A stretch of DNA of 64,000 nt from Nitrososphaerota archaeon (GCA_011605725.1 JAAOZP010000003.1:9032-73031); one strand, 5' to 3'; positions 39,167 to 62,607 are shown, numbered from the stretch's first letter. Translations and numbers: made by a program. Notes: generated by a model from the letters alone, not told the origin.

Positions 39167-39188
39167 TTTGTGTCATGAGAAAACTCGT

Positions 39189-40070: not shown

Positions 40071-40109
40071 TCCAGTTTTCAAATTTAATTCAACCTAATA
40101 TTTTTTAAT

Positions 40110-41657: not shown

Positions 41658-41667
41658 GTGTTTAGGA

Positions 41668-43794: not shown

Positions 43795-44724
43795 CTAGGT
43801 TCCTACTGCTAATTTTTCTTGGCCTCCGCTAAGCCTCCGTATAATGTTCTCTAAGTCCTCGGGCTTGATGGCTTCAATCTTCTCCTTTGTTTCTTCAATG
43901 GCGGAAACCCAGCGTTGAGAACCACTAGTCTTCCTAACAGCTACTATCATATAATAGTAGAATCTATAGGGTGATTTTACCTTAATAGGTATCGTAACCT
44001 CTCTATGCTCTCTGATCTTCTCTAAGTAAAGCTCGAATAGAGCATCTTCATTCTCGCATGCTTTCCACTCATCTGTTCCAAAGAAACGTTGCAGCGTTTC
44101 TATTTCCGCAGAAGTCTTATTTTCTTTTAGAGCACTTCTAGAAACCCCGGTAGATTGATAGTTTATAATAAGATCCCCGGTAAGATTGAAGAGATGTTGC
44201 AGAGTTTCCCACTCTATTTCTAATCCCTCAGGATCTACAAAAGCAAGAAAATGAACGGAGCCAGCTTCTAAACGAGCTTTAGTCATGGCTTTAAATTCTG
44301 GGCCGTTGACATCTTCTTTCCTCACTTTTGCATTCGGAAGTAAATGTCTTAATGCTTCTGCATATTTTTCTTTCTTCTCAAACAGAATCAGCTCGTCGAA
44401 TTTCTTCCTTGGAACCCGGTCTGTGATGAGAGGCGAGCCAAACACGATGAGATTGTTCAAATCGCTTATTCTATCTAAGCCTGGCCCAGCGAAAAGGTCG
44501 ATATAATACGCCTTATCAAAATGGGCTTTAATTATGGCCGTATATATGTCGGCGTAATATGCTAGAATGGCGAGCTTTAAAATAGCCCAGCTTTTACATG
44601 AATAAGCCTCCTTAGTTTTTTGAAATAATTGACTGGCCTCCTGACTCTGACCCCTTAAGGTTTCTATTCTGCGAACCCACCATTCGGAAGGTGTAATTTT
44701 TCTTCTCCGACCAGACGGATTCAT
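43795..44724 (-). CDS. TcmP/RlmJ-like methyltransferase-fold protein (three-Cys-motif partner-like).
   Basis: YYIDLFAGPGLD resembles RlmJ motif I (YLDTHAGAGRY). HFLAFVDPEGLE resembles RlmJ motif IV (LILIDPPYE). Lies 7 bp downstream of a radical SAM gene on the same strand. Confidence 0.5.
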   Translation of the reverse strand: MNPSGRRRKITPSEWWVRRIETLRGQSQEASQLFQKTKEAYSCKSWAILKLAILAYYADIYTAIIKAHFDKAYYIDLFAGPGLDRISDLNNLIVFGSPLITDRVPRKKFDELILFEKKEKYAEALRHLLPNAKVRKEDVNGPEFKAMTKARLEAGSVHFLAFVDPEGLEIEWETLQHLFNLTGDLIINYQSTGVSRSALKENKTSAEIETLQRFFGTDEWKACENEDALFELYLEKIREHREVTIPIKVKSPYRFYYYMIVAVRKTSGSQRWVSAIEETKEKIEAIKPEDLENIIRRLSGGQEKLAVGT

Positions 44725-44730
44725 TTGGAT

Positions 44731-45840
44731 TCACTTAGAGTAGCAATTACAAGTGCCTCGCCTATATGGGATGCCTAGTTTTTCAAGCATCGATACCGTC
44801 TCCTTACAAATACTTACTTTATCATCACCGTAGCCAAAAGCAGAGAGCTTATCCAGCATATACTCATATATCCTTCTCCTTAGTTCAGACGGTAATTTCT
44901 TTCCCCAACCAGTATCTTCTTTAAAGAACTTAGCCCAGCCCATATCTACCCCTGCTTTTTTAGCGTAGTATATTGTTTTCTTTAACCCCCTTGGCGTCCC
45001 AAGTATTATCTTAGCAGGTTCCACCTCAGACATGATTCTGTATAAAATATCTTCATAATGCGTTTCCCAGTCTTCTATAGGGAATATTGGGTCGATCCTT
45101 ATCCTCACCTCATACCCTGTTTCGTAAACCATTTTCGCAGCCTGTATCCTTTGTTCCGGCGGAGCTGCTTTTTTCTCCCAGATTTTTGCAACCTCTACGG
45201 CGTTAATACTCCAAGCGCATACAACCTGTTTCTTAACATGATCAGGCTTATTTAGCAAAAATTTAATACTGTTTGCCCCCGCTTTACTTAGCAGAACGAT
45301 CCTGTGCTTATGCTGCTCTCCAAACTTGTCAACTATTTCACTCATTAAGGGAGGGTTCATCAGGGAATCAGATAATTCGCCGCTGTTGAATAAAGCAGGC
45401 TTGCCACCGTTAAAATGAGGATCGTTAAATGCCTCGTCCAACGCATTGAATACGTAATGTAGTTTCACGTAGCTGGGTTTCATGTTCCCTTTCTTTGTTC
45501 CTCTCAAATAGCAATAAGAGCAATCGAAAGGACAGCCGAAAGCCCATCTCAACTCCCAGAAGGGGCCGCATGCTATGTCTGGAGGAGTTTTCGCGAATAA
45601 TTTCACTATGCCTTGACCGTATTCGGTTCGAAACGGCTTACGAACAGGCTCTTTCACTACGGCTTCAGGATGAGTGATCGACGCAATAATCTTCGGGGGG
45701 AAGAAATCAGGAATCCTCCTGCTCGACTTAGCGATTATTTCCGCCTCTTTCTTCCTTATTGTTCGCCAAGCCTTTAAAGCTGCTTCTCTATGTTTCTCCT
45801 TCTCTGTAAGCATCTTCCCCCTTCCTTTACTGTCTGCCAC
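44731..45840 (-). CDS. Radical SAM protein of the COG1533 (SplB-like 'DNA repair photolyase') type.
   Basis: GCPFDCSYCYL is CxxxCxxC followed by Tyr, as in COG1533 (GC-x-h-x-C-x-YCY). Length 369 aa. Confidence 0.6.
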   Translation of the reverse strand: MADSKGRGKMLTEKEKHREAALKAWRTIRKKEAEIIAKSSRRIPDFFPPKIIASITHPEAVVKEPVRKPFRTEYGQGIVKLFAKTPPDIACGPFWELRWAFGCPFDCSYCYLRGTKKGNMKPSYVKLHYVFNALDEAFNDPHFNGGKPALFNSGELSDSLMNPPLMSEIVDKFGEQHKHRIVLLSKAGANSIKFLLNKPDHVKKQVVCAWSINAVEVAKIWEKKAAPPEQRIQAAKMVYETGYEVRIRIDPIFPIEDWETHYEDILYRIMSEVEPAKIILGTPRGLKKTIYYAKKAGVDMGWAKFFKEDTGWGKKLPSELRRRIYEYMLDKLSAFGYGDDKVSICKETVSMLEKLGIPYRRGTCNCYSK

Positions 45841-45925
45841 TGTCCTTATAAGAACCTACACGGGAAGTTTTTAATCTTTGATTTTTCATTGGAACTTTTA
45901 AATAGCATGAGTTGGTGACTTATGT

Positions 45926-46915
45926 GTGGCTGAACTAGTTGAAAAGAGGGAATCGCCAGAAAAATCCTTATCCATCGGGATATACGTGGGTTTCAAGGCT
46001 GTTAAGACAGGCAACTTATGTTATGATACCCGGGTTTTCGCTCCTCCTGAAGTAAGGGTGGATAGCTATAGAATATCGTATCCGCTCATTAAACCGTCGA
46101 AGCTGACATCAAAAAGCCGTGGAGGCGTCGGTAAGGAGCTGTCGAACGGCTGGGCTTTGAACTTCGCAGTAGGCTGCACCCATGGATGCATCTTCTGTTA
46201 CGTCGACTCGATTCATAAGAGATTTGGAAGACACAGGTATGGGGCGGAGGTGGATGAGAAATGGGGGAACTATTTTCTGATTCCGAATAATATTGAGGAG
46301 GCGGTTGAAAAAACTCCTTGGCACAGGTGGAGGAACCGAGAGGTTCTTTTAAGCTCCACGCATGACCCCTATCTTCCTCAATTAGCGCCTGTTACGAGAA
46401 GAATTCTGGAAAGAGCACTGCCTGCTGGAGTGAAATTCTGCATTCAAACAAGGTCTCCGCTAGTAATGAAGGACTTCGACTTGTTAGCGAAATATGCGAA
46501 AAGCATAAGACTACAGGTGTCGATAGCTACGATGAACGAGGATTTCTCCAGACTGATTGAGCCCAGAGTATCTCCTCCGATGGCTAGGCTAAGCGTGATA
46601 AGAAATGCTAAGGAAGTTGGATTAGAAACCGGAGTCATTTTAGCGCCGATATTCCCACCGACAAGAATGAGGCCAAATGTAGGAGAGGACCTGGATGAAA
46701 TCATGAGGCAACTCGCCTTGATAAAACCAGACCACATATACGGCGAATCCCTGCATATAAGAGGAGGAAACATAAGGCTCATAAAACAAATCCTTGGAGA
46801 AGATTTCAACGATTTAAAGCCATTCGAATCTGAAATAAGGCGCTTGTTCAAATCAAAACTAAAGGAGTACGGTTTGAAGGGAACATGGTGGCTAGAACAC
46901 AGATATTTCAAATAG
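45926..46915 (+). CDS. Second radical SAM protein of the COG1533 (SplB-like) type, transcribed divergently from the first.
   Basis: LNFAVGCTHGCIFCYV is CxxxCxxC-Y. GTG start in the track. Length 329 aa. Confidence 0.6.
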   Translation: MAELVEKRESPEKSLSIGIYVGFKAVKTGNLCYDTRVFAPPEVRVDSYRISYPLIKPSKLTSKSRGGVGKELSNGWALNFAVGCTHGCIFCYVDSIHKRFGRHRYGAEVDEKWGNYFLIPNNIEEAVEKTPWHRWRNREVLLSSTHDPYLPQLAPVTRRILERALPAGVKFCIQTRSPLVMKDFDLLAKYAKSIRLQVSIATMNEDFSRLIEPRVSPPMARLSVIRNAKEVGLETGVILAPIFPPTRMRPNVGEDLDEIMRQLALIKPDHIYGESLHIRGGNIRLIKQILGEDFNDLKPFESEIRRLFKSKLKEYGLKGTWWLEHRYFK

Positions 46916-47111
46916 TTAACAGCTAGATCTCCTTTGTTTCTGGATTTTTCCTCAAATTCAAAAAGTACAATAATGATAAATTAACTTAACCGGGAAATGA
47001 GTTCTTCTCTAGGTGTAGCGTGTGCTCTGAGGATGGTTATTGCATGCAACTCATTATTGTGCAGAGATATTAACGAATTCTGACACTAATTCCTCTATAA
47101 CATTCGGCGCG

Positions 47112-47564
47112 CTAGTGTAGTCCTAGCTTACTTTCAAAGCTCCTAAATTCCTTCTTTTTCTCATAAAGAGCGTTAATCTCTTCCAAAGTTATTATTTTAA
47201 GCTCATCAATTATTTCTTGAATCACTCCAGAAGCAATGTTATAAGCAACACTAGTTTGATCTCTTGTTGTTTCTAAAATTGGTTTTGCATTCCACATATC
47301 CCTGGCATGCTTAAGTTTTGTTAAAGCTTCTTCAAGGTTCCCGCGAATATGCACTTCAAAGACAATGTAAGGATCTGCTCTTTGAAGCCTTTTCCATGCA
47401 ACGTCAATCTTGTAGCCATCAAGCTCTATTTCTTTTATGCTAATCTTTTCTTGAAGTAACCCTATCTGGTGAATTAAGTCTTTAACTGTTTCATGATCCA
47501 GTTCCGTTTTATATGGTATCTTTTTATTCCTTGCTTCATAATTCTCTTCAATTCTCTTGAACAT
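47112..47564 (-). CDS. Hypothetical protein in an AT-rich patch, possibly a small PD-(D/E)xK-like fold.
   Basis: 150 aa. DGYKIDVAWKR…IVFEVHIRG loosely resembles a D…E-x-K arrangement. Weak. Confidence 0.35.
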   Translation of the reverse strand: MFKRIEENYEARNKKIPYKTELDHETVKDLIHQIGLLQEKISIKEIELDGYKIDVAWKRLQRADPYIVFEVHIRGNLEEALTKLKHARDMWNAKPILETTRDQTSVAYNIASGVIQEIIDELKIITLEEINALYEKKKEFRSFESKLGLH

Positions 47565-47636: not shown

Positions 47637-49373
47637 ATGAGTATTATGAGCATCCAAGATCAATTGGGTGAACCCGAGAGTAAGTCTTTTAACATCAGGA
47701 AAATTCTGAACCTTATTAATGAACATGAGTGGAGCCTTTATTTACCTTCTTTTCAAAGATCTTTTCTTTGGGATGAAGAAGATATTAAAAAGTTTCTTGA
47801 ATCAATGCTAAACGGGTATCCTGCTGGATCTATTCTTTTATGGCATCCTAGCAACAAAGGTATTGATCCATTTGCCAGAAAGTTTATAGATACTCGTCCA
47901 GAGCCTGATCACTCTGAAGTTTATTATATTCTGGACGGTCAACAAAGATTAACGGCACTCATGCTTCTCGCAAATGGCTGGAAGCTGGAAAGAGGCAGAA
48001 AAACAATTTCAAGATCTCCGATATCCTACAATCCATCTAAGCAAGGAGGAGAACTTATTAAAGGAATGAAAAGAGGAATCGATCTCTCTAGAGGGATTAA
48101 AGACCGATTAGGTGATGTTAAGGAAAGTCTCAGGCTAAAAAGGGAACTAGGGAGTAATTATAATGATTTCATACGCGCGATAGATAAAATTCTTAATTAC
48201 GAAATGCCTATTTATGTTGTTAAAACTTTTAACGAAACACCAAATATTCTTGGGAAAATGGCAAATATCTTTATAATGGTTAATAGAGCTGGACAGAGAA
48301 TTACCAACGTAGAATTACTCTTATCTTATGCTGCTGGAGTTTTTGATCAAGAAATCGTTAATAATCTAAGAAATTATTATGATGAGATTCAAGAAAAATA
48401 TGGTGAAGAAATCAGTATACAACCTTTCCTAAGATTTGCATTTTCTACTCCTCTAGTTGGGCTTAAGCAACAGGACATAGAAAATGTAGAAAGATTCAAG
48501 GCTTCTGTGAATAAAATAAAAGGGCAATTAACTCTTGATCGTAAAAAGATGTTGAATGAGAAGATTCAAAATGCATCTAAGTCGTTTGGCATAGCCTTAG
48601 ACCTCGTTTTAGAGATTTTCGGGAAGGCAGCCATCGAGCTCTTACCATCGCACATATCGTTAATTCCCATAGCTTGCTATCTTCATATAAATGACATAAG
48701 TAGCGTAAAGGAGCTTAATGAAAATGAGAAAGCATTGATTAAAAAATGGCTTTTGTTGGTGAATTTTAATGGATATTATTCGACAAGACCCTCTGTTAAG
48801 CTTCAGAAAGATATTGAGACTTTAGATCAATCTGGAAGATTTCCATTTCGAGAGTTTCTTGAAAACATTAAAGGAAATAAGCCCTCGGCAATCCGGATAT
48901 CCAAGGATAGCATTGTGGAAGGCTGTAACAAAGACATTCTAAGGAAGCCGAATCTCTCGTATCTTTTCCTACTTTATGTAGCACTAGTAGATAATGAGGC
49001 AAACGATTTGACTGGAAGATTAATAAGGAATCTTAATTTTGAAGAACTTGCTAGGCATCATATATTTCCAAGAGATAAACTCAAAAAAGAATTCAATATT
49101 CCGGAGGAGATATCTGAAGAAGATTATCCTATAAAGGGCATAAATGGGCTCGGAAATATCACTTTAGTACATACAGATGCAAATAGCGAAATATCTGACG
49201 AAGAACCGAAAGAGTATTTTAATAGGTATCGGCGCGAAGACCTTACTAAGCATTTTATTCCCATTAATGACGATAAGCTATGGGATCTTAAAAAGTTTGA
49301 TGATTTTGTTGAAAAAAGAATAGAGAAGATTTATGACTTCCTTAAAGAACGATATCAGGACATAATTGAATAA
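47637..49373 (+). CDS. GmrSD-family type IV (modification-dependent) restriction endonuclease, DUF262 plus DUF1524.
   Basis: DUF262 signature LPSFQRSFLWDEEDIKKF…GSILLW…YILDGQQRLTAL. C-terminal His-Me/HNH-like DUF1524 HHIFPRDKL…GNITLV. Confidence 0.75.
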   Translation: MSIMSIQDQLGEPESKSFNIRKILNLINEHEWSLYLPSFQRSFLWDEEDIKKFLESMLNGYPAGSILLWHPSNKGIDPFARKFIDTRPEPDHSEVYYILDGQQRLTALMLLANGWKLERGRKTISRSPISYNPSKQGGELIKGMKRGIDLSRGIKDRLGDVKESLRLKRELGSNYNDFIRAIDKILNYEMPIYVVKTFNETPNILGKMANIFIMVNRAGQRITNVELLLSYAAGVFDQEIVNNLRNYYDEIQEKYGEEISIQPFLRFAFSTPLVGLKQQDIENVERFKASVNKIKGQLTLDRKKMLNEKIQNASKSFGIALDLVLEIFGKAAIELLPSHISLIPIACYLHINDISSVKELNENEKALIKKWLLLVNFNGYYSTRPSVKLQKDIETLDQSGRFPFREFLENIKGNKPSAIRISKDSIVEGCNKDILRKPNLSYLFLLYVALVDNEANDLTGRLIRNLNFEELARHHIFPRDKLKKEFNIPEEISEEDYPIKGINGLGNITLVHTDANSEISDEEPKEYFNRYRREDLTKHFIPINDDKLWDLKKFDDFVEKRIEKIYDFLKERYQDIIE

Positions 49374-49425: not shown

Positions 49426-49905
49426 CTATTCGCGATGTTCAGTAGGGGGTGTGGCTCCACCAATAACGCATAGGGCGTTGATCACCCTTAACCCACTGGT
49501 TTCCTTGCTGACTAACCCTAGAAACTTGCTCGTCCAGAACCATACTTCCTCAGGCGTGCACGACATTAGGTATCTCATGGTTTTCTCCGCCGTTTCATCC
49601 GTCTCGGCGTAAGCTAATGTTGCTGTCGCTAAACCTATTCTATACGCGTCCACCATGGCCTCCATGCTCTTCGGTGGAAAGTCTATGCGGAAACCTGTAC
49701 GTGTCCTTCTGCTCCCATATTTAGCCACCAGCTCTTTTATATGAGGGCGAATCATTATTACGCGGCTGCCCTTCAATGAACCGATGATGAAGCTTGGACG
49801 CCTGAGCTCGTGTGGTAGGGCCAGCTCCCTTGATTTCGGCCAAGCCTCTACAGACACCTTTTCATTTTTTCCCTTCGAATATTTCAACACGTATTTGTAG
49901 GTCAA
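49426..49905 (-). CDS. Small accessory protein co-transcribed with the DUF499 ATPase. Function unknown.
   Basis: 159-aa ORF starting 3 bp after the DUF499 stop on the same strand. No motif recognised. Confidence 0.4.
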   Translation of the reverse strand: MTYKYVLKYSKGKNEKVSVEAWPKSRELALPHELRRPSFIIGSLKGSRVIMIRPHIKELVAKYGSRRTRTGFRIDFPPKSMEAMVDAYRIGLATATLAYAETDETAEKTMRYLMSCTPEEVWFWTSKFLGLVSKETSGLRVINALCVIGGATPPTEHRE

Positions 49906-49907
49906 GC

Positions 49908-52856
49908 CTATGCACCTACATTTGCCTCGAGGCCTGCCACTATATCCTTACCAAGGCTTCTAAGCACCCCTGCAGCATCCTCTGGCTTAACCGGCTCACC
50001 CCATTTAAGCTCAAGCCGCACCTGTAGCGAATCTATTCCCTTAAGCCTCCAGAGGAGATCCAGCATGCTCTTACCCTCCTCTTTCTGCAAATCCTCCTTA
50101 TTAATTTCGAAAGAGATCGTGTAACTAGGAGACCTAGGCCTAGTAATCGACCCCGATAACCTTATGTTGCAATTTCTCTCCGGGCCTAGGCGGGTGAGAA
50201 GGTTTTTAATCTCAAGAAGCTGTCCAGCATCATTAGAGGAAATCTTTAAAATCACACTATTAACTTTAGTAAAACGGTCCCGAATAGCTCTCTTCTCTAT
50301 GTCGTTCGCCAAAGTTTCAACAGAGGATTCTGCAAGCACTATTAAGGTTGGACGCACCTTTTCCTCGGTGGGTTCAATTCCCCTCTTTTCCCCAGTATCT
50401 TTAGACACCTTTTCTTTTCCTCGGAGAAGCTTGTCGGCTTCTTCTGGCGTTAGTAACTCGGTGCGCTCATCCATTAAAATAGACTTCGGAGGATTATCCT
50501 TAGTATATATCATGTCTCCACACTTCAGAACCCATACCCCGTTTTCAACACCTCTTCTAACAGTTTCCAGAAACTTATCCTTAGACGACGAAATTATCAT
50601 ACCGGGTTTCCTGTAGAATTGCTCAAACAGCATCCTTATGCTTACGCTTTCTGCCCCCGCTGGCCAAACATTGGAGAACACGTATACAGGGTCAAGAGGC
50701 TCGTCCTTTACCCTGCCAAGCACGTTAACCAGTATATGCTTAAGCATATCGTAGCCACTGGCACCGGAAGCATAGCCGCTTCCATCTCTTACAGGTATTA
50801 CTTTAACTCCCTCCGCATCATAATATACGAAGTTAGAAAAGGCTCCTCTGATGTAGTCGTGAAGATTCTTTTCCTGTCTTGCCAAATACTCTTCAACATC
50901 GTTTTTTCTATCCTCACTTATACCATACTTCTTTAGGTCTCCCTTCACCATCCTCGCCGCCACTACCTTCCTAGCCACTTGCTTCATGGGTTCAATCCTG
51001 TCTTGAGCAGCAACCAGCAGAAACGTGGAGTTGGTGAACATCCTTGCATGTTGACCATGATCATCCCTATGTTCTAGAAACCTTCTAACTCGCTCTGGAA
51101 CAGTTCTGTCTGATATTACGTATTCATTGGGGTTAAGTATTGCGACTTGAATTACGGGCTCGTCGTCAAAGACTTTGCTTGGAGATGATGGGAAGAGCTC
51201 TACATCTATCCAGTCGGGCGATGAAGGAGTTCGTTTGAAAAGCTCATTCCGCAGCTTCTCCTTGATAACCTCTAGAGTTTCGCTCTCAGTTATGTCCCTC
51301 GACAGAAGGTCGATAACCCTTATTGGCGTCGGCTCTCTAACGAAGACAAATCTCTCGCCTTGCCTGTCGACAAAATGGAAGTTTTCTGAAAGATAATCCA
51401 GCACGATGTCACGTACCCTCATAAAGTGTTCCCTCCTGGCCGGCGTGACTAGTAGCGAAACCAGAAGCTCCGACCTAATGCCTTTATCCCCCTCCTTTCC
51501 AGCAGTTAAGCTATAAAGGTAAATCGTATTACAAGCTCTCCTAACGAGCGGTACTCCCCAGTTTTCCTTAGCCTGCTCATCCAGTTTTTCAGCAACAGCA
51601 GTACCGTCACCCTTCCAAACATCGGCTTCCACAGCATTTCTGAGCTTCTGCTCTCCGATATGCGTGGATAATTCGGCAAGCACATCTCGGTCAGCTAGGT
51701 CCACATGGAAAGGATGGATTAAGGTAGCGTCTTCCTCTTTTTCCGACCACATCTTGCGAACAACCTTAACGAGGAGCCGTAAAGCCCCCCTTGTTCTCTG
51801 AAACCTGTCGAGGGTAGCAACCCTCTCGTACAGGACTCTTATTAGATGAGGGTGAAAAGGATAATAATCCCTTATCATATCTCTGTAAGACTTGCTCTTA
51901 AACTCGTCTGGAACCGTTAGACTCTGGTAGAGCTCGTGATAAGCATCAGCCACATCCTCCGCCACCTTACTGTTAATCTTCTTAAACAGGCGTCTCTTCA
52001 AAATGTGGACGGCATCCTCCTCTTCTATCGGGACTAAGACAAGTTCTTTTCTCGCTACATGGGCCCTCGTCTCAGCCATCGCATTCCTAACAGCATCTGA
52101 AACCGCTTGCCTAGCCTTCTCAGCCTCAGACCTGTAAACGTCCTCAGCAATCGCCATCACTAGGACAGCGTCATCCTTCTCGGACACGGCTAGCACAAGC
52201 CTCTGAATCCACATTATAGTCTTATCAAGCATATCCTTCTCGAGGGCTACGAGCTTCAAGTAGGACGGCAACTCGTCGAGAAGAATCAGGACAGGTCCTC
52301 CCTCAAGAACCTTCTTAATGTCGTCGATACCGGGGACCTTTGCTTCCCGGTCAATACCAGCATAGTCATCATATTTGCCCAACTGCCAGAAGAGGTCGCC
52401 CCATATCGTTCTGATTCTGGTGCCGTCCCTAGTTATGCCATCACTCTTATAGTCCTCACCACTGATAGTCACAACCTTCACGTTCCGAGGAAACCTTAGG
52501 TTCCCCAAGAATTCCGAAACCTCGCTTCTGCCACTGTATTTGGCTGCATAATAGAGAGTGGCAAGAGTATGAGTCTTACCGCCGCCGAAGCCAACGTCGA
52601 GGACGATAACCGGGTTTACACCCTTCTTAGTGCCCGACAGCCTCCCGGCTACACTCTCCAATATCAGCCTCATGTTGCTAGTTAAGTGCGTCGCGGATAG
52701 AAATGAAACAGGGTTATCGTAAGGTGGCTTAGCAGTTCCTGAGACAATCGTGGAGAGCCTGAGAGCCAGGTCGGCATCTGTTAACGAGCCTGATAAAACC
52801 TCTTCCCTGGGAATACAAGCCTCCTCATCCCAGACCCGGGGAACATGTTCCGACAT
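49908..52856 (-). CDS. DUF499-family P-loop ATPase (BrxC/PglY-like).
   Basis: P-loop VIVLDVGFGGGKTHTLATLYY near residue 90 of a 982-aa protein. Its size and the N-terminal position of the P-loop fit DUF499. Confidence 0.6.
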   Translation of the reverse strand: MSEHVPRVWDEEACIPREEVLSGSLTDADLALRLSTIVSGTAKPPYDNPVSFLSATHLTSNMRLILESVAGRLSGTKKGVNPVIVLDVGFGGGKTHTLATLYYAAKYSGRSEVSEFLGNLRFPRNVKVVTISGEDYKSDGITRDGTRIRTIWGDLFWQLGKYDDYAGIDREAKVPGIDDIKKVLEGGPVLILLDELPSYLKLVALEKDMLDKTIMWIQRLVLAVSEKDDAVLVMAIAEDVYRSEAEKARQAVSDAVRNAMAETRAHVARKELVLVPIEEEDAVHILKRRLFKKINSKVAEDVADAYHELYQSLTVPDEFKSKSYRDMIRDYYPFHPHLIRVLYERVATLDRFQRTRGALRLLVKVVRKMWSEKEEDATLIHPFHVDLADRDVLAELSTHIGEQKLRNAVEADVWKGDGTAVAEKLDEQAKENWGVPLVRRACNTIYLYSLTAGKEGDKGIRSELLVSLLVTPARREHFMRVRDIVLDYLSENFHFVDRQGERFVFVREPTPIRVIDLLSRDITESETLEVIKEKLRNELFKRTPSSPDWIDVELFPSSPSKVFDDEPVIQVAILNPNEYVISDRTVPERVRRFLEHRDDHGQHARMFTNSTFLLVAAQDRIEPMKQVARKVVAARMVKGDLKKYGISEDRKNDVEEYLARQEKNLHDYIRGAFSNFVYYDAEGVKVIPVRDGSGYASGASGYDMLKHILVNVLGRVKDEPLDPVYVFSNVWPAGAESVSIRMLFEQFYRKPGMIISSSKDKFLETVRRGVENGVWVLKCGDMIYTKDNPPKSILMDERTELLTPEEADKLLRGKEKVSKDTGEKRGIEPTEEKVRPTLIVLAESSVETLANDIEKRAIRDRFTKVNSVILKISSNDAGQLLEIKNLLTRLGPERNCNIRLSGSITRPRSPSYTISFEINKEDLQKEEGKSMLDLLWRLKGIDSLQVRLELKWGEPVKPEDAAGVLRSLGKDIVAGLEANVGA

Positions 52857-52907
52857 ACGATAATAAGAACCCAGGCAAGCTATTTAAATAGTTAGCCTCA
52901 GTACATT
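52857..52907. promoter_or_regulatory. Bidirectional promoter region with a palindromic TATA-like element (TATTTAAATA, 52881..52890).
   Basis: A 51-bp divergent intergenic region lies between the DUF499 ATPase gene (minus strand) and the DUF1156 methyltransferase gene (plus strand). The palindromic A/T box sits ~24 bp and ~17 bp from the two start codons. Confidence 0.35.
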
Positions 52908-55718
52908 ATGCTGAAAATGCCGGAGAAAATCGGCGCACCGGCTGAAAGAAGGGTTCTGATAGACGACTGGTTCCCAGCCGGAGAGGCTAGCGTCGAAAGC
53001 GTGAGAGAGAGGAGTGTAGGTCAGAATCCGCCAATAAACAGAATGCATGTCTGGTTTGCACGCCGACCGTTAGTTGCATCCAGGGCCGCGGTCCTAGCCT
53101 CCATCCTCCCGCCTGATACGACGAGAGAGTCTTTCCTGAGGCTTCTAGGAATCCCGCCGGATAAGGATGTTGTCGGGGCAAGCGAACAGCTGGAGAGGGC
53201 GAAGGCTATGGGAACAAGGCTTGAGCAAAATCCGCTCAGCTGGCCCCGGGCCTTCAAATACACTCCTACTAGGCAACAGCTGGCTGAGCTTAAACAGAGC
53301 ATCTCAAAGTTTTGGGGCAAGAGTGAAGTAACTGTCTTAGACCCAATGGCGGGCGGAGGCAGCATACCCTACGAGGCTCTTCGCCTAGGTCTGAACGTTG
53401 TGGCGATGGACCTGAATCCCGTGGCATTCCTATGCCTAAAGACGACGCTAGAATACCCTACGAGGTTCAGGGGCAAGCTCATACCTGCTGTTAGAGATTT
53501 TTGCGAGAAAATACATGAAAAAGCAAAACTAGAATTGGAAAAATACTTTCCAAAAGGAAAGTCAGAGAACGTATATGCCTACCTCTGGGCAAGAACCATA
53601 AAGTGTCCTTCATGCGGCCTGGTAATTCCGCTCTCTCCCAACTGGTGGATTGTCAGGCAGGGTGACAAGAACGATAAGGCCGTAAAGCTAACCGTCAGTA
53701 ACTCTTCAAATACCTGTTCCTTCGAAATAGTTGAAAACCCGCGCAAGCATGGAATTAATCCGGACGAGGGAACTGACATCGGTAAGGCTGCGAGGTGCCC
53801 GAGGTGCAAGACGACCATCAGCTCAACCGAGGTCAAGAGACAGGCTCAAGAGGGCTCCATGGGTCATCAGCTCTACGCAGTATCAACAAAGACTTTTTTG
53901 AATTTCAAGGAAGTCGAATGGGTCTTCAGGCCTCCTACTCCAGGGGAGATCGAGGCGGTTAGGGAAGCAGAGGAAAGGCTGAGGGAGAAACTGCCAGACT
54001 GGGAATCAAAAGGCCTTGTTCCCGTGGAAGTTATACCTGAAGGGCTAAAGACAAGAGAACCACTGAATTTCGGTCTACGCCGATGGTGCGACCTCTTTAA
54101 TCCTCGCCAACTCCTTACGCACCTGACCTATCTTGAGAAGTTCCTTGAGGCCAAGAAGGAGCTCTTGGAGAAGGCTACAAACGAGGAAGAAAGAGAATTT
54201 GCAAAGGCCGTAGTAACATACGGTGCTCTAGTCTTTGATACTAGTGTTGACTATAATTCGGTTCTTACTAGGTGGGGACCCACAAGACAGGGTATACGGG
54301 GTTCAATGGCTGTCCAGGCATTTCCGTTCAAGACGAGCTACGCTGAGTGGAATCAGCTGGTTCCTAAGGGTGGTTACGAGTGGGCCTTGGAGAAGGTGCT
54401 TGATGCCCTTGAGGAGATCGTGAAGCTTCTCCCCGAAGAGGCTGGCGATGTTAAGGTCTTCTGCGGGGACGCTGCTTCCATCCCGCTGCCTGATGGGAGT
54501 GTGGACTGCATTGTCGTTGACCCTCCCTACTACGAGAACGTTATGTATGGCGAGGTCAGCGACTTCTTCTACGTGTGGTTGAAGAGGCTCGTCGGGGATC
54601 TTTACCCTGAGGAGTTTTCAGGCGAGCTGTCGAACAAGGAGGATGAGGCTGTTGCCAACCCGGCGATGTTCAGAGGCATGGGGGGAAGAGCGAAGAGGTT
54701 AGCGAGCCAGCATTACGAGTCGAAGATGGAGGCCTGCTTCAGAGAGATGAGGAGGGTTCTCAGGGATGATGGGGTTATGGTTGTGATGTTCACGCATAGG
54801 AAGGCGGAGGCCTGGGCCAGCTTGGCAACGGCTTTGATGAACGCAGGCTTCACGTTCAGGGCCTCCTGGCCGGTTGCAACCGAGCCCGGCCAGAAGTTCG
54901 GCAAGGCGGAGAAGGGCGTTCTCAGGATCACCGTTCTCCTGAGGTGTCAGAAGCGCGCCGCCGAGAAGAGGGGACTGTGGGAGGAGGTTAGGAGGGAGCT
55001 TCTGGAGGAGGCGGAGAGGAAGGTTAGGGAGCATGACTCTAAGGGGATAAGGGGCCCGGACCTCTTGGTCAGCGTCTACGGTCCTGTCTTAGGCAGGTTC
55101 GCCGACTACTCTATGGTTAAGGATGCTGCTGGTAACATTAAGACTCCTAGCGACGCCTTGGAAGTGGTGGCTGAAGCTGTTAACAGGTTCCTGACGGAGG
55201 ATATACAGAGTGCGGATGTGGAGACGCTTGCCTACCTCAACCTTCTCAGGAACTTTCCCAATCTGACTGTTGAGTATGACTTGGCTAGGATAACGACGGT
55301 CTTCGGGGGCAACGTCAGCCTGGACCTCCTAGACGTTAAGGGGGGAAGTGGGCTGGTTTGGAAGGAGAAGGGGAAGGTCAGTATTCTGCTCTCTAAGGAT
55401 AGGCTTGCCAACGGTATAATTAATCCTGCGAAGCCTGAGAGGCTCAAGACGCTTATAGACGTGGTTCACGCTGCGCTCATACAGTATGAGAGAGTAGGAA
55501 TGCTGGCGGTGAAAAACCTGTTGAAGGAGAAGGGGAGGGACTACAGGGATTCAGGCTTCATCTCAGCCTTAAGGGCTATCGCGCAACTAGGCTATGATGA
55601 AAACGGGTCTAAGAAGCTTCGTGAAGAAGCGAGGACGGCCAGCACGCTTTTGGAGGCGCTTGGATACAGGCCTGAATCCTTCCTGAGGAAGGGGGAAAAG
55701 ATAACTCATTTCACTTGA
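52908..55718 (+). CDS. DUF1156-containing adenine-specific DNA methyltransferase with a Zn-ribbon (COG1743-type).
   Basis: The N-terminal DUF1156-like block is …NPPINRMHVWFARRPLVASRA…. Zn-ribbon cysteines are IKCPSCGLV…AARCPRCKTT. Catalytic DPPY-type motif VVDPPYYENVMY. Length 936 aa. Confidence 0.7.
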   Translation: MLKMPEKIGAPAERRVLIDDWFPAGEASVESVRERSVGQNPPINRMHVWFARRPLVASRAAVLASILPPDTTRESFLRLLGIPPDKDVVGASEQLERAKAMGTRLEQNPLSWPRAFKYTPTRQQLAELKQSISKFWGKSEVTVLDPMAGGGSIPYEALRLGLNVVAMDLNPVAFLCLKTTLEYPTRFRGKLIPAVRDFCEKIHEKAKLELEKYFPKGKSENVYAYLWARTIKCPSCGLVIPLSPNWWIVRQGDKNDKAVKLTVSNSSNTCSFEIVENPRKHGINPDEGTDIGKAARCPRCKTTISSTEVKRQAQEGSMGHQLYAVSTKTFLNFKEVEWVFRPPTPGEIEAVREAEERLREKLPDWESKGLVPVEVIPEGLKTREPLNFGLRRWCDLFNPRQLLTHLTYLEKFLEAKKELLEKATNEEEREFAKAVVTYGALVFDTSVDYNSVLTRWGPTRQGIRGSMAVQAFPFKTSYAEWNQLVPKGGYEWALEKVLDALEEIVKLLPEEAGDVKVFCGDAASIPLPDGSVDCIVVDPPYYENVMYGEVSDFFYVWLKRLVGDLYPEEFSGELSNKEDEAVANPAMFRGMGGRAKRLASQHYESKMEACFREMRRVLRDDGVMVVMFTHRKAEAWASLATALMNAGFTFRASWPVATEPGQKFGKAEKGVLRITVLLRCQKRAAEKRGLWEEVRRELLEEAERKVREHDSKGIRGPDLLVSVYGPVLGRFADYSMVKDAAGNIKTPSDALEVVAEAVNRFLTEDIQSADVETLAYLNLLRNFPNLTVEYDLARITTVFGGNVSLDLLDVKGGSGLVWKEKGKVSILLSKDRLANGIINPAKPERLKTLIDVVHAALIQYERVGMLAVKNLLKEKGRDYRDSGFISALRAIAQLGYDENGSKKLREEARTASTLLEALGYRPESFLRKGEKITHFT

Positions 55719-55752
55719 GGCATGGAACATAGATGTATAAGCTTGATTAGCA

Positions 55753-56277
55753 TTAGGAATGGATGTCGGAAATTTCCACGGCTTCTATTCTAGACTCTCC
55801 CAGGATGCCCTGTCTCCAAGAGGCTAGGTATTGCTCCAGCTTCTCAAGCCTTACAAGGATCTTCTCAGCCTGCTCCATCTCCCTGCGGCCGTTTCCCTCT
55901 AAGAGCCCTACAGCCTTGGATCCGTGTCTCAAGATGCCTCTGAGCAGCCTGTCATGGTCAACTGATTCACGTTGCCTCTCCACCAGGTGCATGTTTTCTT
56001 GAACGAATTTTCTGAGCGGGGCGTTCATGCTCGTAAGCCTTTTTTCAAGCGCCATCCTTACTTGATTTGTTGAAGGCCTTCTTTCTAAATCATGGTCTAG
56101 TGAGGCGAAATATACGCCAGCCTTATAGATGTGCCTAGCGATAAGCTCATGAGCGCCTTCAACCATGTTTCTCCTGAAGGATTCAAGTCTTCTTTCCTGC
56201 TCGGCGTCAATAATCCTTCCCCTGCTTCTGGCTGAGACCAGTGCTTGCTCAATGCTCTTCCTACAGCTGCACGTCAT
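55753..56277 (-). CDS. Small accessory protein co-transcribed with the PLD-SNF2 helicase. Function unknown.
   Basis: 174-aa ORF whose start overlaps the helicase stop by 4 nt (ATGA), suggesting translational coupling. Confidence 0.4.
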   Translation of the reverse strand: MTCSCRKSIEQALVSARSRGRIIDAEQERRLESFRRNMVEGAHELIARHIYKAGVYFASLDHDLERRPSTNQVRMALEKRLTSMNAPLRKFVQENMHLVERQRESVDHDRLLRGILRHGSKAVGLLEGNGRREMEQAEKILVRLEKLEQYLASWRQGILGESRIEAVEISDIHS

Positions 56278-59200
56278 GCTGATTCCTCCATGCTTAACAG
56301 TTCATCCACTAATTGGATTACCTTTTCTCTGTCGCTTAAAACTTCGGGAACAGCGTCTCCTTCCCTTATTACTCGGAGAGACCCTAATCCATCATGCTCC
56401 TTTATTAGATAGATGCTTTTCGAGGCTTTTAAACCCTTGTTCCCCGTCTTGGAGATTATATTGTCGCAGAGCCATTGAACTATGGGGTGTGCAGGAGTCA
56501 ACACGTTAGGCCTCCCAACTTCGAGACTGGCATTGTTCCATCTTCTCAATTCCTCGGGCAGCTGCTTTTCATCGATCTCCAAACCATTGTCTTTAACGCA
56601 CGCCTTTAATCCCAGTGCTTTCGCTGCTTTTAGTGTGAAGTCTGCTATTCTGTTTATAACGTCTTCATCCGCGGTCTTAGCGCCCTCCCATGACGCTCCG
56701 GTAATAGTTCCCGCGATCCTGGCTGCGCGTTCTTTAACCTCGTCGACTTTCTGTAATGTTTCTGAGACTATCATCCTTATTTTCTCAGTTGTCTCTCCCT
56801 CATCCAGCGCTTTACGCAAACCCTCGCTGATTATTTCTTGAGCCGGACCCACTACTAACCCGTAGATCTCTCTCCTCTGGAAGAGAACACGGTACATCTC
56901 TGCCTCTATGCTTTCAGGGTACCAGATATTCTTCACGAGCACAACGCTGGCTTTCTGCCCCAGCCTATCTGCCCTACCGATCCTCTGCTCAACCTTAGCC
57001 GGGTTCCACGGCATATCAACGTTAATTACCACGTTTGCTGCTTGAAGGTTAAGGCCTTCGCGCGCAGCGTCGCTGCAAACCAGAACCCTTACATTTCCAT
57101 CGGTGAGTTCCCGACTGACCTCGTCCTTGTCTACTGGAACATAAGTGTCTTTCTCCCTATCGTAGACCATGCCGCCTGCACCAGTATAGATGGCGATCTC
57201 CGATTTTGAAAGATACTTGCTTTCTCTTGCAAGGAATCTTGAAACGGCATCAACAGTATCAGTATACTTGCTGAAAATCAGAATCTTATGGCCTTTAGAA
57301 AGCAGGTCGTCTACTACTGAAACCACCTTGCGGAGTTTCGGGTCACCTCTGGAGAGGATGTCCGGAGAATAGTCTCCAAGCTCATTCTCCAACTCTCTTA
57401 GCTTCTGAATCTCTCGCCGTATTAGTTCACCAGCCCCGCTGGCAAGAAGCTCCTGCATGGCCTCTATAATATCCTCCTCATCCCCCTCCCACTCCGGTTC
57501 TTCTATAAACCTGGAGGCTGCAGCGAGGAGCGCGTCTCTATCACCTTTCAAGAGGGCTTCTAAAAATTCCCTCCTATTCTTTACGGTCAGGTATGCTGCC
57601 GTGAAACTGCTTACAAACCTCTGATGGTAGATGCATTTAACAAACCCTATTATCGACTTACTTTCTCCTTTCAGTATTCTCTCATATTGCCCATATTCGT
57701 TTCTAAGATAACTGTCCAGTTTCCTTAGCAACTCCATGTGTTTAGCATCTAGTTCAACCGGCTCCTCCGCAATATGTCTCTCGGGAAAAGAGTATCCTAA
57801 CTCCTTCAGTTTGCTCCTCGTGTTCCGAACCATGAACCATTGCACGGGGTTAAGGGCGAGAAGCAGCTTCCTCAACCGTTCGATCCCATGGTGTTGTACT
57901 ACGTCCACGATTTTTTCCAAACCCTCTCCGGACAGTATGCGTTCAGTTATTGTTTCAGCCGTGTGCTGATCGCCGAAAATCTTTTCAAGAATCTCTTGAA
58001 GCTCTTTCCTGTCAACATATTGACCAGCTATCCACGATGCTAATCTTAGGCAGAATTCCCATTCCGACTTGGTGATGGTAGCCGGGTCGGAGGACAGTGC
58101 TCTGAAATATCTTTGAAAATCCTCCTCGTGAACCCAGGGTCCGCTTAGCCCAAGTATCTGAAGCAGATCCATGGCTTCAGCCTCGTAGAGCTGAACCGGC
58201 GTCGCAGTGACGAGCAGTATGTGAGGAGCTGTAACACTGAGCTCCGCAAGCAGGTCGTTAAGCAGGGTTGGCTCTATCTTCCCAGGGCTCCTCTTCTTCC
58301 TCGCATGGTGGGCTTCGTCAACCACTATTAGGTCGAAGAACTTCCCGGTGTTAAGAAGCTCTGGAGGCCTGTTTCTAGATCCTCGAGCATAATGCCAGGA
58401 GGCTATCATTAAATCAATACCCTGCTTGTCAAAAGGGTTTTCACCGTGCCCTATGGGTATCAACCTGCCTTCAACATCAACGAATTCTTTCCTAAAGGTG
58501 TCGAGCAACCAGAAGCGGAGGCCGAAGTGGCTCCACATCTCCTCCATCCATTGTCTCGCAACATTCTTAGGGGACAGTATTAGGATTCTTTGTGCCCGAC
58601 CCAGCGACACTAGCCTCTTGATTATGGCTCCCGCCTCAATCGTTTTCCCCAGTCCAACCTCGTCGGCAAGCAACACTCTGTGAGGATACCTGGACAGGGC
58701 GAAGTCGACGGCGTAAGCCTGATACGGGTGGAGAGCCACGGGCCCGAGACCCAGGTGGGCGAATTGCCTTATGTTCCCGATTTCTCTAACGAGTCTAGCA
58801 GCCGGGACCAATAATTGGCAGGCAGCAAAATTAGGTATACCCACCCCTTCTATAACCGTTTCGTCTTCCAAAGGGTCTGTTTCAGGAGGCTTTGCACCAT
58901 AATATTTTTCCCTAAGCTTTTTCTCAACCACCTCAGGCAGGGGAAACACGAAATAATCGGGATGCTTATCCTCCCAGAGAACATCAAACCTCTCTGTATA
59001 CCTCTTAATATACTCCTCGTGCCCAGGTTTCCAAGACATGTGAACAGTCAGGTTTTCACCGTTTATCTCGTATGCAGCCCGGGTTTCATTCGCGCTTCCA
59101 GCGGCGGCGATAGTGCAGCCATCAAAATCCCTGAATATCATCAGTTTTTCATGAAAAATGCCATTGCCCAGCCCAAGGAAAGTCTTCTTCGGCAGCGCTA

Positions 59201-59600
59201 CCCTGACTTCAAGCGTGCCGTTCACCAGCATCCAGGCTAAGGCTTCAATCCTTCTCCGAGCTATTATATCCTCAGCCTTTTCAAGTCCAGCAGCTATTCT
59301 CTCCCCGATCTCGCGGATCAGTTCCTCAGCCCTTTCCCTACTCATCCTGTATGCCTCTACGAGATCCGGCTCCACATCGTGAAGCCCAACTATCAGCTTC
59401 ATCCGCCCATTGTTCCTCAGGAGACCAGCTATGCCGGCGGCCACAACAATAAGGGAGTCTGCGCTGAAAAAGCCCGACAGCCTCTCGTAATAGCAACATC
59501 TTTTAAGAACAGGAATGTAAAAGCGCTGGGCTATAATATTTCCATCACCCTCATACATTATCTCGAGACTGGAGCCGAGTTCCTCATAGAGGCATCCCAT
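56274..59600 (-). CDS. SNF2-family helicase with an N-terminal PLD-type (HKD) nuclease domain.
   Basis: HKD-like GNGIFHEKLMIFRD. Helicase motif I LLADEVGLGKTIEAG. Motif II DLIVVDEAHHARK. C-terminal helicase domain (…VLVCSDAAREGLNLQ…, arginine motif QRIGRADRLGQ). Confidence 0.75.
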   Translation of the reverse strand: MGCLYEELGSSLEIMYEGDGNIIAQRFYIPVLKRCCYYERLSGFFSADSLIVVAAGIAGLLRNNGRMKLIVGLHDVEPDLVEAYRMSRERAEELIREIGERIAAGLEKAEDIIARRRIEALAWMLVNGTLEVRVALPKKTFLGLGNGIFHEKLMIFRDFDGCTIAAAGSANETRAAYEINGENLTVHMSWKPGHEEYIKRYTERFDVLWEDKHPDYFVFPLPEVVEKKLREKYYGAKPPETDPLEDETVIEGVGIPNFAACQLLVPAARLVREIGNIRQFAHLGLGPVALHPYQAYAVDFALSRYPHRVLLADEVGLGKTIEAGAIIKRLVSLGRAQRILILSPKNVARQWMEEMWSHFGLRFWLLDTFRKEFVDVEGRLIPIGHGENPFDKQGIDLMIASWHYARGSRNRPPELLNTGKFFDLIVVDEAHHARKKRSPGKIEPTLLNDLLAELSVTAPHILLVTATPVQLYEAEAMDLLQILGLSGPWVHEEDFQRYFRALSSDPATITKSEWEFCLRLASWIAGQYVDRKELQEILEKIFGDQHTAETITERILSGEGLEKIVDVVQHHGIERLRKLLLALNPVQWFMVRNTRSKLKELGYSFPERHIAEEPVELDAKHMELLRKLDSYLRNEYGQYERILKGESKSIIGFVKCIYHQRFVSSFTAAYLTVKNRREFLEALLKGDRDALLAAASRFIEEPEWEGDEEDIIEAMQELLASGAGELIRREIQKLRELENELGDYSPDILSRGDPKLRKVVSVVDDLLSKGHKILIFSKYTDTVDAVSRFLARESKYLSKSEIAIYTGAGGMVYDREKDTYVPVDKDEVSRELTDGNVRVLVCSDAAREGLNLQAANVVINVDMPWNPAKVEQRIGRADRLGQKASVVLVKNIWYPESIEAEMYRVLFQRREIYGLVVGPAQEIISEGLRKALDEGETTEKIRMIVSETLQKVDEVKERAARIAGTITGASWEGAKTADEDVINRIADFTLKAAKALGLKACVKDNGLEIDEKQLPEELRRWNNASLEVGRPNVLTPAHPIVQWLCDNIISKTGNKGLKASKSIYLIKEHDGLGSLRVIREGDAVPEVLSDREKVIQLVDELLSMEESA

Positions 59601-59965
59601 TAGTTATCTTAGAAACCATGCAGCGGTATTTAAAAATTGATTCGTATTTTCATCCACATTAAAACTGTAGGCATGCTGCTTAAATAGCTCTTTATTCGCA
59701 CTTGACGAAAAATAACAATGAGTGAAAAGCTTGCCGAGCTCAGCATGGTACGTGGTTAAACAAGTTCTTACGCGCGTAGGGATGAAGGAATCAGAGGTAT
59801 TGCAAAATATGTGAAGAACTTTATGTTCTCCAAAAGGAATTTGAGTGTAAAGATTATTCTTTCAGGTAGCGTGCGCTAAAAACTGGTTTAAACTTTTTAA
59901 ATACGGCTAATTCTTATATATTGCAACTGGAAAGTGTTTTATTAATAAGCGTGGCACGCGCTAAA

Positions 59966-61660: not shown

Positions 61661-62379
61661 TACAACTTCGCCAATCCTAATAAGTTTTTCGCTGGTAGGG
61701 CACGCTAAAGACGTTTATGTTAGAGTATTGTTTCTACTCTTCAACTATGAATCCTTCTTCAATCAGGATTCTTCTGCAATCCTTGCAGAGCGACTTCAAC
61801 CATTTGGCAAGTAGTCTTCTCTCCTGTTCCGCAGACTTTATTTTAACGCTGAAGATCCTGTCGAACCTCCTCTGCACTCTTTGCACACGAGGTCATACTC
61901 TGAGGAGCGCATTCCTTGAGATAGAAGGTAGGGATAATTTAAGCGTTTGTTGTCAAAAACAACAACATGTTGCACCCAGCGTCATAAGCCTTTTTAACAC
62001 GGTTTGAATTAGCACGCGCTTCTCCTCCTAGCTTAAGGAAGGTTAGCGTAGCTAAACTTAAGAGTGTGACAAAAGGTTCAAAATTTTGGTAGACGTGGTT
62101 AAAGATAAGAATACATTGCGTTTATGCAGATTTGCTTAATTTCAAAAATGAAAAAGAAGCTTGAAACAGTGTTTAAGGAAGCGCGCGCGCTCTGACGCTC
62201 TAAAATAGCAATGAGTGGTAAATGGATGTAATCGCAGCGTGCTTTCGCTGACTTTAAAAATCAGGCTGTTCACGACCCTTTTTCAGAGACCTCTGATAGG
62301 CTTGAATTGGATAACGGAAGTACGGTATGATTTATTCTTAAGGCAAAGCTTAAAAGTAGTATGTAAGGCTTATAGTTGG

Positions 62380-62607
62380 ATGAGAAAAATTATTCAGGTG
62401 AGGGTTTACAAGGGGGAGAAATACTACGTTGCTGAGTGTGTTGACCTGCCTGTTGTCAGCCAGGGGAAAACGCTGGACGAGGCTGTGGAGAACATAAGGG
62501 AAGCGATAAGCCTCCATCTTGAAGGAGAGGATTTAAGCGAATGGGACATACTTCCAGATTTTTCCATACTGATTAGCATGGAAGTCCCTCCTCATGTCGA
62601 GGCTTAA
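62380..62607 (+). CDS. hicB: HicB-like antitoxin (UPF0150 / RNase H-like fold).
   Basis: MRKIIQVRVYKGEKYYVAECVDLPVVSQGKTLDEAVENIREAISLHLE is the HicB N-domain pattern. The ORF-track extension upstream to 62215 is probably not translated. Confidence 0.6.
   Translation: MRKIIQVRVYKGEKYYVAECVDLPVVSQGKTLDEAVENIREAISLHLEGEDLSEWDILPDFSILISMEVPPHVEA

Follow-up and report, generated by a model that had tools for sequence, protein, structure and literature searches.

A five-gene cluster at positions 49426-59600 of a 64,000-nucleotide stretch from a Nitrososphaerota archaeon (GCA_011605725.1 JAAOZP010000003.1:9032-73031; the whole stretch is called the window below) is, with a probability that we put at roughly 85%, an intact and divergent archaeal representative of the type-2 BREX-related family centred on DUF499, also called Gao_RL and MANTIS. 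By analogy with that family, the cassette would very probably act as an ATP-dependent, restriction-modification-like defence system. The type of system is already known; new here are a DUF7680-type partner protein, an extra gene coupled to the helicase gene, and a split transcriptional layout in a divergent archaeal lineage. Gene content, intact catalytic motifs, conservation as a cassette and purifying selection are directly established.

The "BREX-related" (BR) systems centred on DUF499 were defined by Rakesh and Krishnan (Nucleic Acids Research 2026, PMC12839542), whose type-2 set comprises a DUF499 ATPase, a DUF1156 N6-methylase, an HKD-Snf2 helicase and a standalone DUF3780 protein. The synapomorphy of this type is an HKD endonuclease that replaces the helicase's N-terminal TUDOR domain; type 2 was reported from 1120 taxa (119 of them archaea), with DUF3780 in 98% of taxa. 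In a September 2026 preprint, Shaw et al. (bioRxiv 10.64898/2026.09.23.753747) gave the name MANTIS to Gao_RL/Gao_29, which had been analysed before through the restriction that it exerts on some DNA phages, and dissected MtsABCD by genetics, biochemistry and structure. MANTIS consists of an ATPase (MtsA), a co-activator (MtsB), an N6-adenine methyltransferase (MtsC) and a phospholipase D (PLD)-helicase nuclease (MtsD). MtsA, an AAA+ ATPase, loads MtsC onto DNA, and MtsB, a small dimer, is needed to activate hemimethylation of asymmetric 6-bp sites; the need for all three proteins in hemimethylation was shown for the Pseudomonas system only. MtsB is essential to methylation and to restriction. 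Restriction needs MtsA-D and favours inverted unmodified sites, with the dimeric PLD-helicase MtsD as effector. Some MANTIS operons also carry an accessory repressor, MtsR. Because both the type-2 BR definition and the MANTIS work match the cluster described here, its core is a named, experimentally studied system, and the statement in the initial annotation of this DNA that no experimental characterisation was known has to be withdrawn.

Layout of the cluster and its three large proteins

An open reading frame (ORF) scan reproduced the compact five-gene unit of the initial annotation, recovering all five ORFs at identical coordinates together with the strands, the 51-bp divergent spacer and the overlap that couples the 174-amino-acid (aa) gene. 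On the minus strand, the gene for an MtsA-like DUF499 AAA+ ATPase (982 aa; 49908-52856) ends in TAG and is followed two nucleotides on by the TTG start of the gene in the MtsB slot, which encodes a DUF7680-type small protein of 159 aa (49426-49905, minus strand). Divergent from the ATPase gene is the plus-strand gene for an MtsC-like DUF1156 N6-adenine DNA methyltransferase of 936 aa (52908-55718), with a Zn-ribbon in its target-recognition insert. The 51-bp spacer between the two (52857-52907), a putative divergent promoter region, contains the palindromic TATA-like element CTATTTAAATAG at 52880-52891, the TTTAAATA core of which is kept in five of six aligned loci, the window counted. Across a 34-bp gap the methylase gene converges on the fifth gene (55753-56277, minus strand), encoding an all-helical protein of 174 aa. 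The latter gene overlaps the end of the gene for an MtsD-like effector of 1108 aa, an N-terminal HKD (PLD) nuclease joined to a Swi2/Snf2 helicase (56274-59600, minus strand), by four nucleotides (ATGA, the helicase stop and the 174-aa start); to judge from this overlap, the two genes are translationally coupled and share one transcript. The region 5' of the helicase gene (59601-59640, minus strand), the outer edge of the conserved cassette, has a TATA-like element, TTTTTAAATA, at 59627-59636, about 30 nt 5' of the helicase ATG. Both CTATTTAAATAG and TTTTTAAATA are consistent with TATA-type promoters of archaea, whose transcripts would have a short leader or none, and are putative promoters on that basis.

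The assignments of the large proteins as a DUF499 protein, a DUF1156 Zn-ribbon methylase and a PLD-SNF2 helicase, also made initially, were recovered by Pfam, and PADLOC models match all three. The 982-aa protein matches Pfam DUF499 (5e-46) and the PADLOC models HmaC (1.5e-86) and DUF499 (4e-39), and has an intact P-loop (GFGGGKTH, residues 89-96) and Walker B motif (LILLDE, 190-195). The 936-aa protein matches Pfam DUF1156 (1.8e-14) and N6_N4_Mtase, and PADLOC HmaB (2e-79) and DUF1156_MTase (8.5e-52); its motif I (MAGGG147), Zn-ribbon cysteines (CPSC233 and CPRC297) and motif IV (DPPY538) are intact and follow in that order. For the 1108-aa protein, the matches are PLDc_2 (3e-06), SNF2-rel_dom (5e-17) and Helicase_C (2e-20) in Pfam, and PLD_Helicase (9e-65), DrmD (6e-65), BrxHI/BrxHII (4e-56) and HmaA (2.3e-55) in PADLOC; the HKD nuclease motifs H150-E-K and GSAN168 and the helicase motifs GLGKT316, DEAH428 and QRIGRADRLGQ872 are all intact. 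NCBIfam holds four models (NF042961-64) for "anti-phage-associated" DUF3780, DUF499 and DUF1156 proteins and a "phospholipase D-like anti-phage protein", and the three large proteins match three of them along most of their length: DUF499_antiphage (6e-58; 197 bits, cut-off 1200), DUF1156_antiphage (1.8e-71; 241 bits, cut-off 1000) and phospholipD_antiphage (1.2e-97; 328 bits, cut-off 1100). The last alignment is nearly full length (residues 23-940 vs. profile 13-850 of 895), and by BLASTP residues 27-915 of the helicase align with an Acinetobacter baumannii anti-phage PLD-helicase at 25% identity (E 1e-53). An A. baumannii plasmid carries the canonical four-gene operon, DUF499-DUF3780-DUF1156-PLD-helicase, annotated as anti-phage.

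A conserved cassette with two small genes

Seven further archaeal contigs contain these five genes, arranged and oriented alike, and the ratio of nonsynonymous to synonymous substitution (dN/dS) is 0.06-0.11 across all five, indicating purifying selection; the recurrence of the arrangement together with this selection argues that the cluster is not a chance assembly, and the dN/dS values that both small ORFs are real, constrained genes. By blastn, three of the contigs (L001, L010 and L011) align with the window as a single colinear block (49454-59640, 75-84% identity) that ends at 59638-59640 and has unrelated flanks, so that the five genes and the helicase promoter evidently travel as a 10.2-kb cassette. 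Searches of the window returned no tRNA gene, and repeats, direct or inverted, that would mark an integration site were not found on either side of the cassette. The window is a metagenome contig from JGI (3300029625, Ga0311297_1014352), and the nearest named relative is a Thermoproteota metagenome-assembled genome (MAG).

Some relatives differ from this pattern. In two metagenome contigs (L006 10572-13322 and L011 10561-13359) two or three ORFs take the place of an uninterrupted DUF1156 methylase gene, with the ATPase, helicase and small genes intact; phase variation, an assembly error, or a frameshift or pseudogene could account for this. The cassette of L007 has an extra 379-aa gene with no family match (10556-11695, minus strand) between a 183-aa gene and the methylase gene, and it adjoins a tyrosine integrase and an IS110-type transposase fragment (L007 1-6568), which suggest carriage on an integrated element. 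The best plasmid match to the helicase (36% identity), on a Haladaptatus sp. DYSN1 plasmid (L015 12729-18752), belongs to no DUF499/DUF1156 locus; its neighbours, a DEAD/DEAH helicase, a DUF1998 protein and a PLD protein, resemble the DrmA/DrmB/DrmC set of DISARM, a context from which it follows that HKD-Snf2 helicases of the same clade also occur in other system types.

The 159-aa protein aligns over its full length with Pfam DUF7680, below threshold (E 0.019; residues 5-140 vs. profile 1-136 of 141), and homologues at 51-53% identity have a precomputed match to this family (PF24728); the dN/dS of the gene is 0.07-0.11. A DUF7680 protein directly follows DUF499 on Aminobacter pMET2 (E 4e-44), Picosynechococcus pAQ6 (E 7e-46) and a Rhodococcus plasmid (E 5e-28), and on the Haloplanus sp. 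GDY1 plasmid NZ_CP098516.1 an ORF of 213 aa that lies between the genes for DUF499 and DUF1156 and has no annotation (L014 12300-12941, plus strand) also matches DUF7680 (E 7e-35), meaning that public annotation has missed an MtsB-slot gene there. All of these loci carry the same three large genes. Given its presence in the DUF3780 slot of bacterial and haloarchaeal loci, DUF7680 is a widespread alternative occupant. The archaeal 159-aa branch itself is rare: an exhaustive profile search of 1.84 billion representatives returned 39 clusters at 50% identity, and the same profile reached no bacterial DUF7680 or DUF3780 protein among them. One match, P0179, was discarded as a low-complexity repeat artefact. 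Among the relatives P0012-P0015, P0153 and P0155, some have C-terminal extensions of 70-140 aa, giving totals of 227-290 aa, and in L018-L020 (L018 986-2368) a 227-aa form precedes a 220-aa gene with a faint S-adenosylmethionine (SAM)-methyltransferase match.

Are DUF7680 and DUF3780 related? An AlphaFold2 model of the 159-aa protein (predicted local distance difference test score 90) has four strands and five helices, and DUF3780, which is of a similar small size, is described as having four strands and five helices (PMC12839542). Comparing mixed DUF7680 with DUF3780 alignments by hhalign gave a match in the C-terminal region only (PEEvWFWTSK...AL vs. PEErWWLYSK...AL, E 0.019), the score of 21.9 comparing with 13.3 ± 2.5 under a column-shuffle null and being reached in 1 of 300 shuffles; the C-terminal motif common to both families is PEExWxWxSK. 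The archaeal 159-aa family compared with the single A. baumannii DUF3780 sequence was not significant by hhalign. Remote homology of DUF7680 and DUF3780 is probable but unproven, and the shared E...W...S residues may be the MtsB dimer-interface residues E156, W159 and S167 of the MANTIS preprint (numbering inferred). No entry for MtsB or MtsD came up when the PDB was searched, by sequence and by profile, with the helicase and the two small families.

For the 174-aa protein, Pfam and PADLOC gave nothing up to E 10, and its sole NCBIfam match is short and well below cut-off (SE1832_fam, 20 vs. 45 bits); nor were a fold match or helix-turn-helix (HTH) or Arc/CopG features found in it. Its family comprises 17 clusters at 90% identity among 5.8 billion proteins and one locus among 185,579 species genomes, in a Crenarchaeota MAG. 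In every contig with visible context the gene lies directly 3' of the HKD-Snf2 helicase gene, with an overlap of 1-4 nt in L001, L005, L006, L007, L010, L011 and L023; in L009 the helicase is truncated by the contig end. None of the inspected loci of bacteria and haloarchaea contains the family. A same-sized gene 3' of the Haloplanus helicase proved unrelated, encoding an acidic alpha/beta protein (hhalign probability 0.06%). Positions conserved in the family include a CxC at the N-terminus, H49, a GLLEGNG motif and D171-x-H173 at the C-terminus, and a putative metal clasp formed by the termini is conceivable from this pattern. We propose that the protein is most likely a lineage-specific MtsD-associated subunit with the role of a regulator or adaptor. 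The initial annotation had considered that the cluster might coincide in composition with a system already named; this is so for the three large genes and probably for the 159-aa gene, and it is not so for the 174-aa gene.

A more specific, joint proposal is tentative: the 174-aa protein might be a fifth subunit that binds MtsD, with DUF7680 as a second, widespread family of MtsB co-activators. In that event the 174-aa protein could restrain MtsD or couple it to an MtsABC-like recognition complex, and the PEExWxWxSK element common to DUF7680 and DUF3780 might correspond to the MtsB dimer interface. In the bacterial four-gene system, a link between MtsD and MtsABC escaped biochemical detection: the MANTIS authors detected no contacts between them.

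Alternatively, the two small ORFs could be hitch-hikers (an anti-defence gene, for instance, or a regulator or toxin-antitoxin element), with only the three large proteins acting. The lack of a confident family match for either small protein, the restricted distribution of the 174-aa family and the precedent of MtsR in some MANTIS operons are all compatible with such passengers. Both genes, however, are tightly joined to the large gene upstream (by a 2-nt gap and a 4-nt overlap), both are kept in every related cassette down to 46-47% identity, and their dN/dS shows the same constraint as that of the large genes, which answers the check, proposed initially, of whether the small ORFs are conserved across homologous clusters. 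In addition, the MtsB-slot protein of MANTIS is essential for methylation and restriction, and the 174-aa protein is devoid of HTH or Arc/CopG features. Taken together, we regard mere passengers as unlikely.

Relation to Hma, DISARM and BREX

Several points weigh against placing the cassette in the type-2 family. None of the three NCBIfam scores reaches the equivalog cut-off of its model (NF042962-64), and scores so far below it point to a divergent lineage outside the canonical equivalog group. The large proteins are only about 25-30% identical to bacterial members, and with such identities and scores, site length, hemimethylation and orientation dependence may differ here. Pfam DUF3780 and NCBIfam DUF3780_antiphage (NF042961) both fail to match the 159-aa protein, whose likeness to DUF3780 is statistically weak by hhalign and shuffling. 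The genes form three transcription units with a divergent promoter between the A and C genes, unlike the colinear mtsABCD operon of MANTIS. What the proteins do, which sites they target and what part each small protein plays are all inferred for a lineage known from sequence alone, and cleavage by MtsD is not yet reconstituted even in the model system (bioRxiv 10.64898/2026.09.23.753747). Finally, the best PADLOC matches of the ATPase and the methylase are Hma (type-1) models.

The last point would suit a type-1 BR, or Hma, system, made up of the helicase-nuclease HmaA, the methylase HmaB and the ATPase HmaC, of which a version was shown to protect against phage T4 in Halomonas (Halomonas HmaA, PMC11232893); the helicase, too, is matched by the HmaA model. 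That model, though, covers the helicase core only (residues 605-912 vs. profile 324-641 of 1176). In type-1 BR helicases a TUDOR domain forms the N-terminus and an active PD-(D/E)XK nuclease the C-terminus (PMC12839542), a combination not found in the window helicase, the N-terminus of which is an HKD/PLD nuclease with intact HxK and GSxN motifs. The small MtsB-slot gene, specific to type 2, is present as well, and we consider assignment to Hma very improbable.

Least credible is a DISARM, BREX type-3 or type-3 BR system, or a fragment of one: the helicase does match DrmD and BrxHI/BrxHII, the methylase weakly matches PglXI (3e-17) and DUF499 is a BrxC-like ATPase, but the DrmD-like similarity is limited to the Snf2 core, the nuclease is fused to the helicase, unlike in type-3 BR (PMC12839542), the cassette has sharp edges that enclose five genes only, and no PglZ, BrxA, BrxB, iSTAND, DrmA, DrmB or DrmC is found in it or in the scanned neighbours. 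The initial description of a defence cluster with BREX/DISARM-like logic and without PglZ, DrmA or DrmB is in line with this gene inventory, and the type-2 assignment is the one retained below.

The cassette sits inside a defence island. Next to it, in a stretch of low GC content (0.36) outside the conserved block, a GmrSD-type (DUF262/DUF1524) modification-dependent type IV restriction enzyme of 578 aa (47637-49373, plus strand; GmrSD_N 6e-25, GmrSD_C, HEC-05 4e-45) is encoded by a gene that converges on the 159-aa gene. A GC-rich (~0.51) run of three plus-strand genes (39168-42858) consists of the genes for a type II DNA methyltransferase (MTase_II in PADLOC, 9e-64) and for a HerA/DUF87 ATPase that is also a weak mad8 match, and of a 396-aa ORF without a match; it may form a further defence module, linked to methylation or based on HerA. 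On the minus strand, 26989-28269 and 35897-37192 encode two paralogous AAA_14 + DUF4143 ATPases (PDC-S01), the second matching the PADLOC candidate PDC-S01 at 3e-99. A 309-aa protein matching the candidate PDC-M41A (4e-19) is encoded beside spore-photoproduct-lyase-like and radical-SAM genes (43795-46915), and a 130-aa ORF (62215-62607, plus strand) with a weak match to a HicB-like antitoxin (E 5e-4) suggests a toxin-antitoxin pair near the island. Two short segments outside the cassette (47110-47470 and 61737-61998) share 67-76% identity with small genes found beside it in L001, L010 and L011, where positions and orientations differ; these are recurrent small island genes.

Proposed mechanism and comparison with known systems

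By analogy with Pseudomonas MANTIS (bioRxiv 10.64898/2026.09.23.753747), the MtsA-like DUF499 AAA+ ATPase would load the MtsC-like DUF1156 methyltransferase onto short asymmetric sites. Helped by the DUF7680-type protein in the MtsB slot, the methylase would then modify one strand and so mark the cell's own DNA. On incoming DNA, unmodified sites, above all inverted pairs, would trigger the dimeric MtsD-like protein: the recognition complex that serves for marking would license the dimer to translocate and to cut through its single shared PLD site. The 174-aa protein would have its place here as a lineage-specific regulator or adaptor bound to the MtsD-like protein.

For genome annotation, the locus should be labelled as MANTIS or type-2 BREX-related, not as a novel candidate. 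Its small partner is missed by NCBIfam DUF3780_antiphage and Pfam DUF3780 and is matched by no PADLOC model; since loci of bacteria and haloarchaea also have DUF7680 in the MtsB slot, rules that insist on DUF3780 may detect too few loci of this kind. A natural lineage with a dedicated, co-translated MtsD partner could give a hint of how the effector is controlled, and a probably thermophilic archaeal source might make the system biochemically tractable. The remaining interest lies in the fifth gene and in the relationship between DUF7680 and DUF3780. In its accessible text, PMC12839542 mentions neither the sequence motifs of the cassette nor DUF7680 (for DUF7680, the main text and six supplementary files; for the motifs, the supplements), and a helicase-coupled fifth gene is described in the accessible parts of neither that paper nor the MANTIS preprint.

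Set beside MANTIS of Pseudomonas aeruginosa AZPAE15024, the window cassette shares the DUF499 AAA+ ATPase of the ORC/Cdc6 clade, a small partner gene directly 3' of the ATPase gene, a DUF1156-type N6-adenine methylase in which motif I, the target-recognition insert and DPPY follow one another in this order, and a single-HKD PLD nuclease fused to a superfamily 2 (SF2)/Snf2 motor, and like MANTIS it is without PglZ. It differs in its partner, which is of the DUF7680 type and not DUF3780 (spelt "DUF3870" in the preprint), in the extra 174-aa gene coupled to the MtsD-like gene, in that no MtsR (Arc/CopG) gene is seen in the cassette, and in its archaeal host, with what are probably TATA-type promoters. 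From the type-2 BR systems of PMC12839542 it likewise departs in the small protein, which is DUF3780 in that paper, whereas Pfam DUF7680 occupies the slot here. Hma (PADLOC, PMC8565338; PMC11232893) has a homologous ATPase and methylase, the same Snf2 core and a restriction-modification-like logic, but its helicases begin with a TUDOR domain and end in a PD-(D/E)XK nickase, and it has no MtsB-slot gene. SauUSI-type PLD-helicases have the same domain order as the window helicase, and MtsD, a dimer that combines two SF2 motors with a single shared PLD active site, is reported to be structurally related to SauUSI (bioRxiv 10.64898/2026.09.23.753747); SauUSI, however, is autonomous and targets modified DNA, whereas the effector of the window cassette is predicted to depend on the MtsABC-like proteins and to target unmodified DNA.

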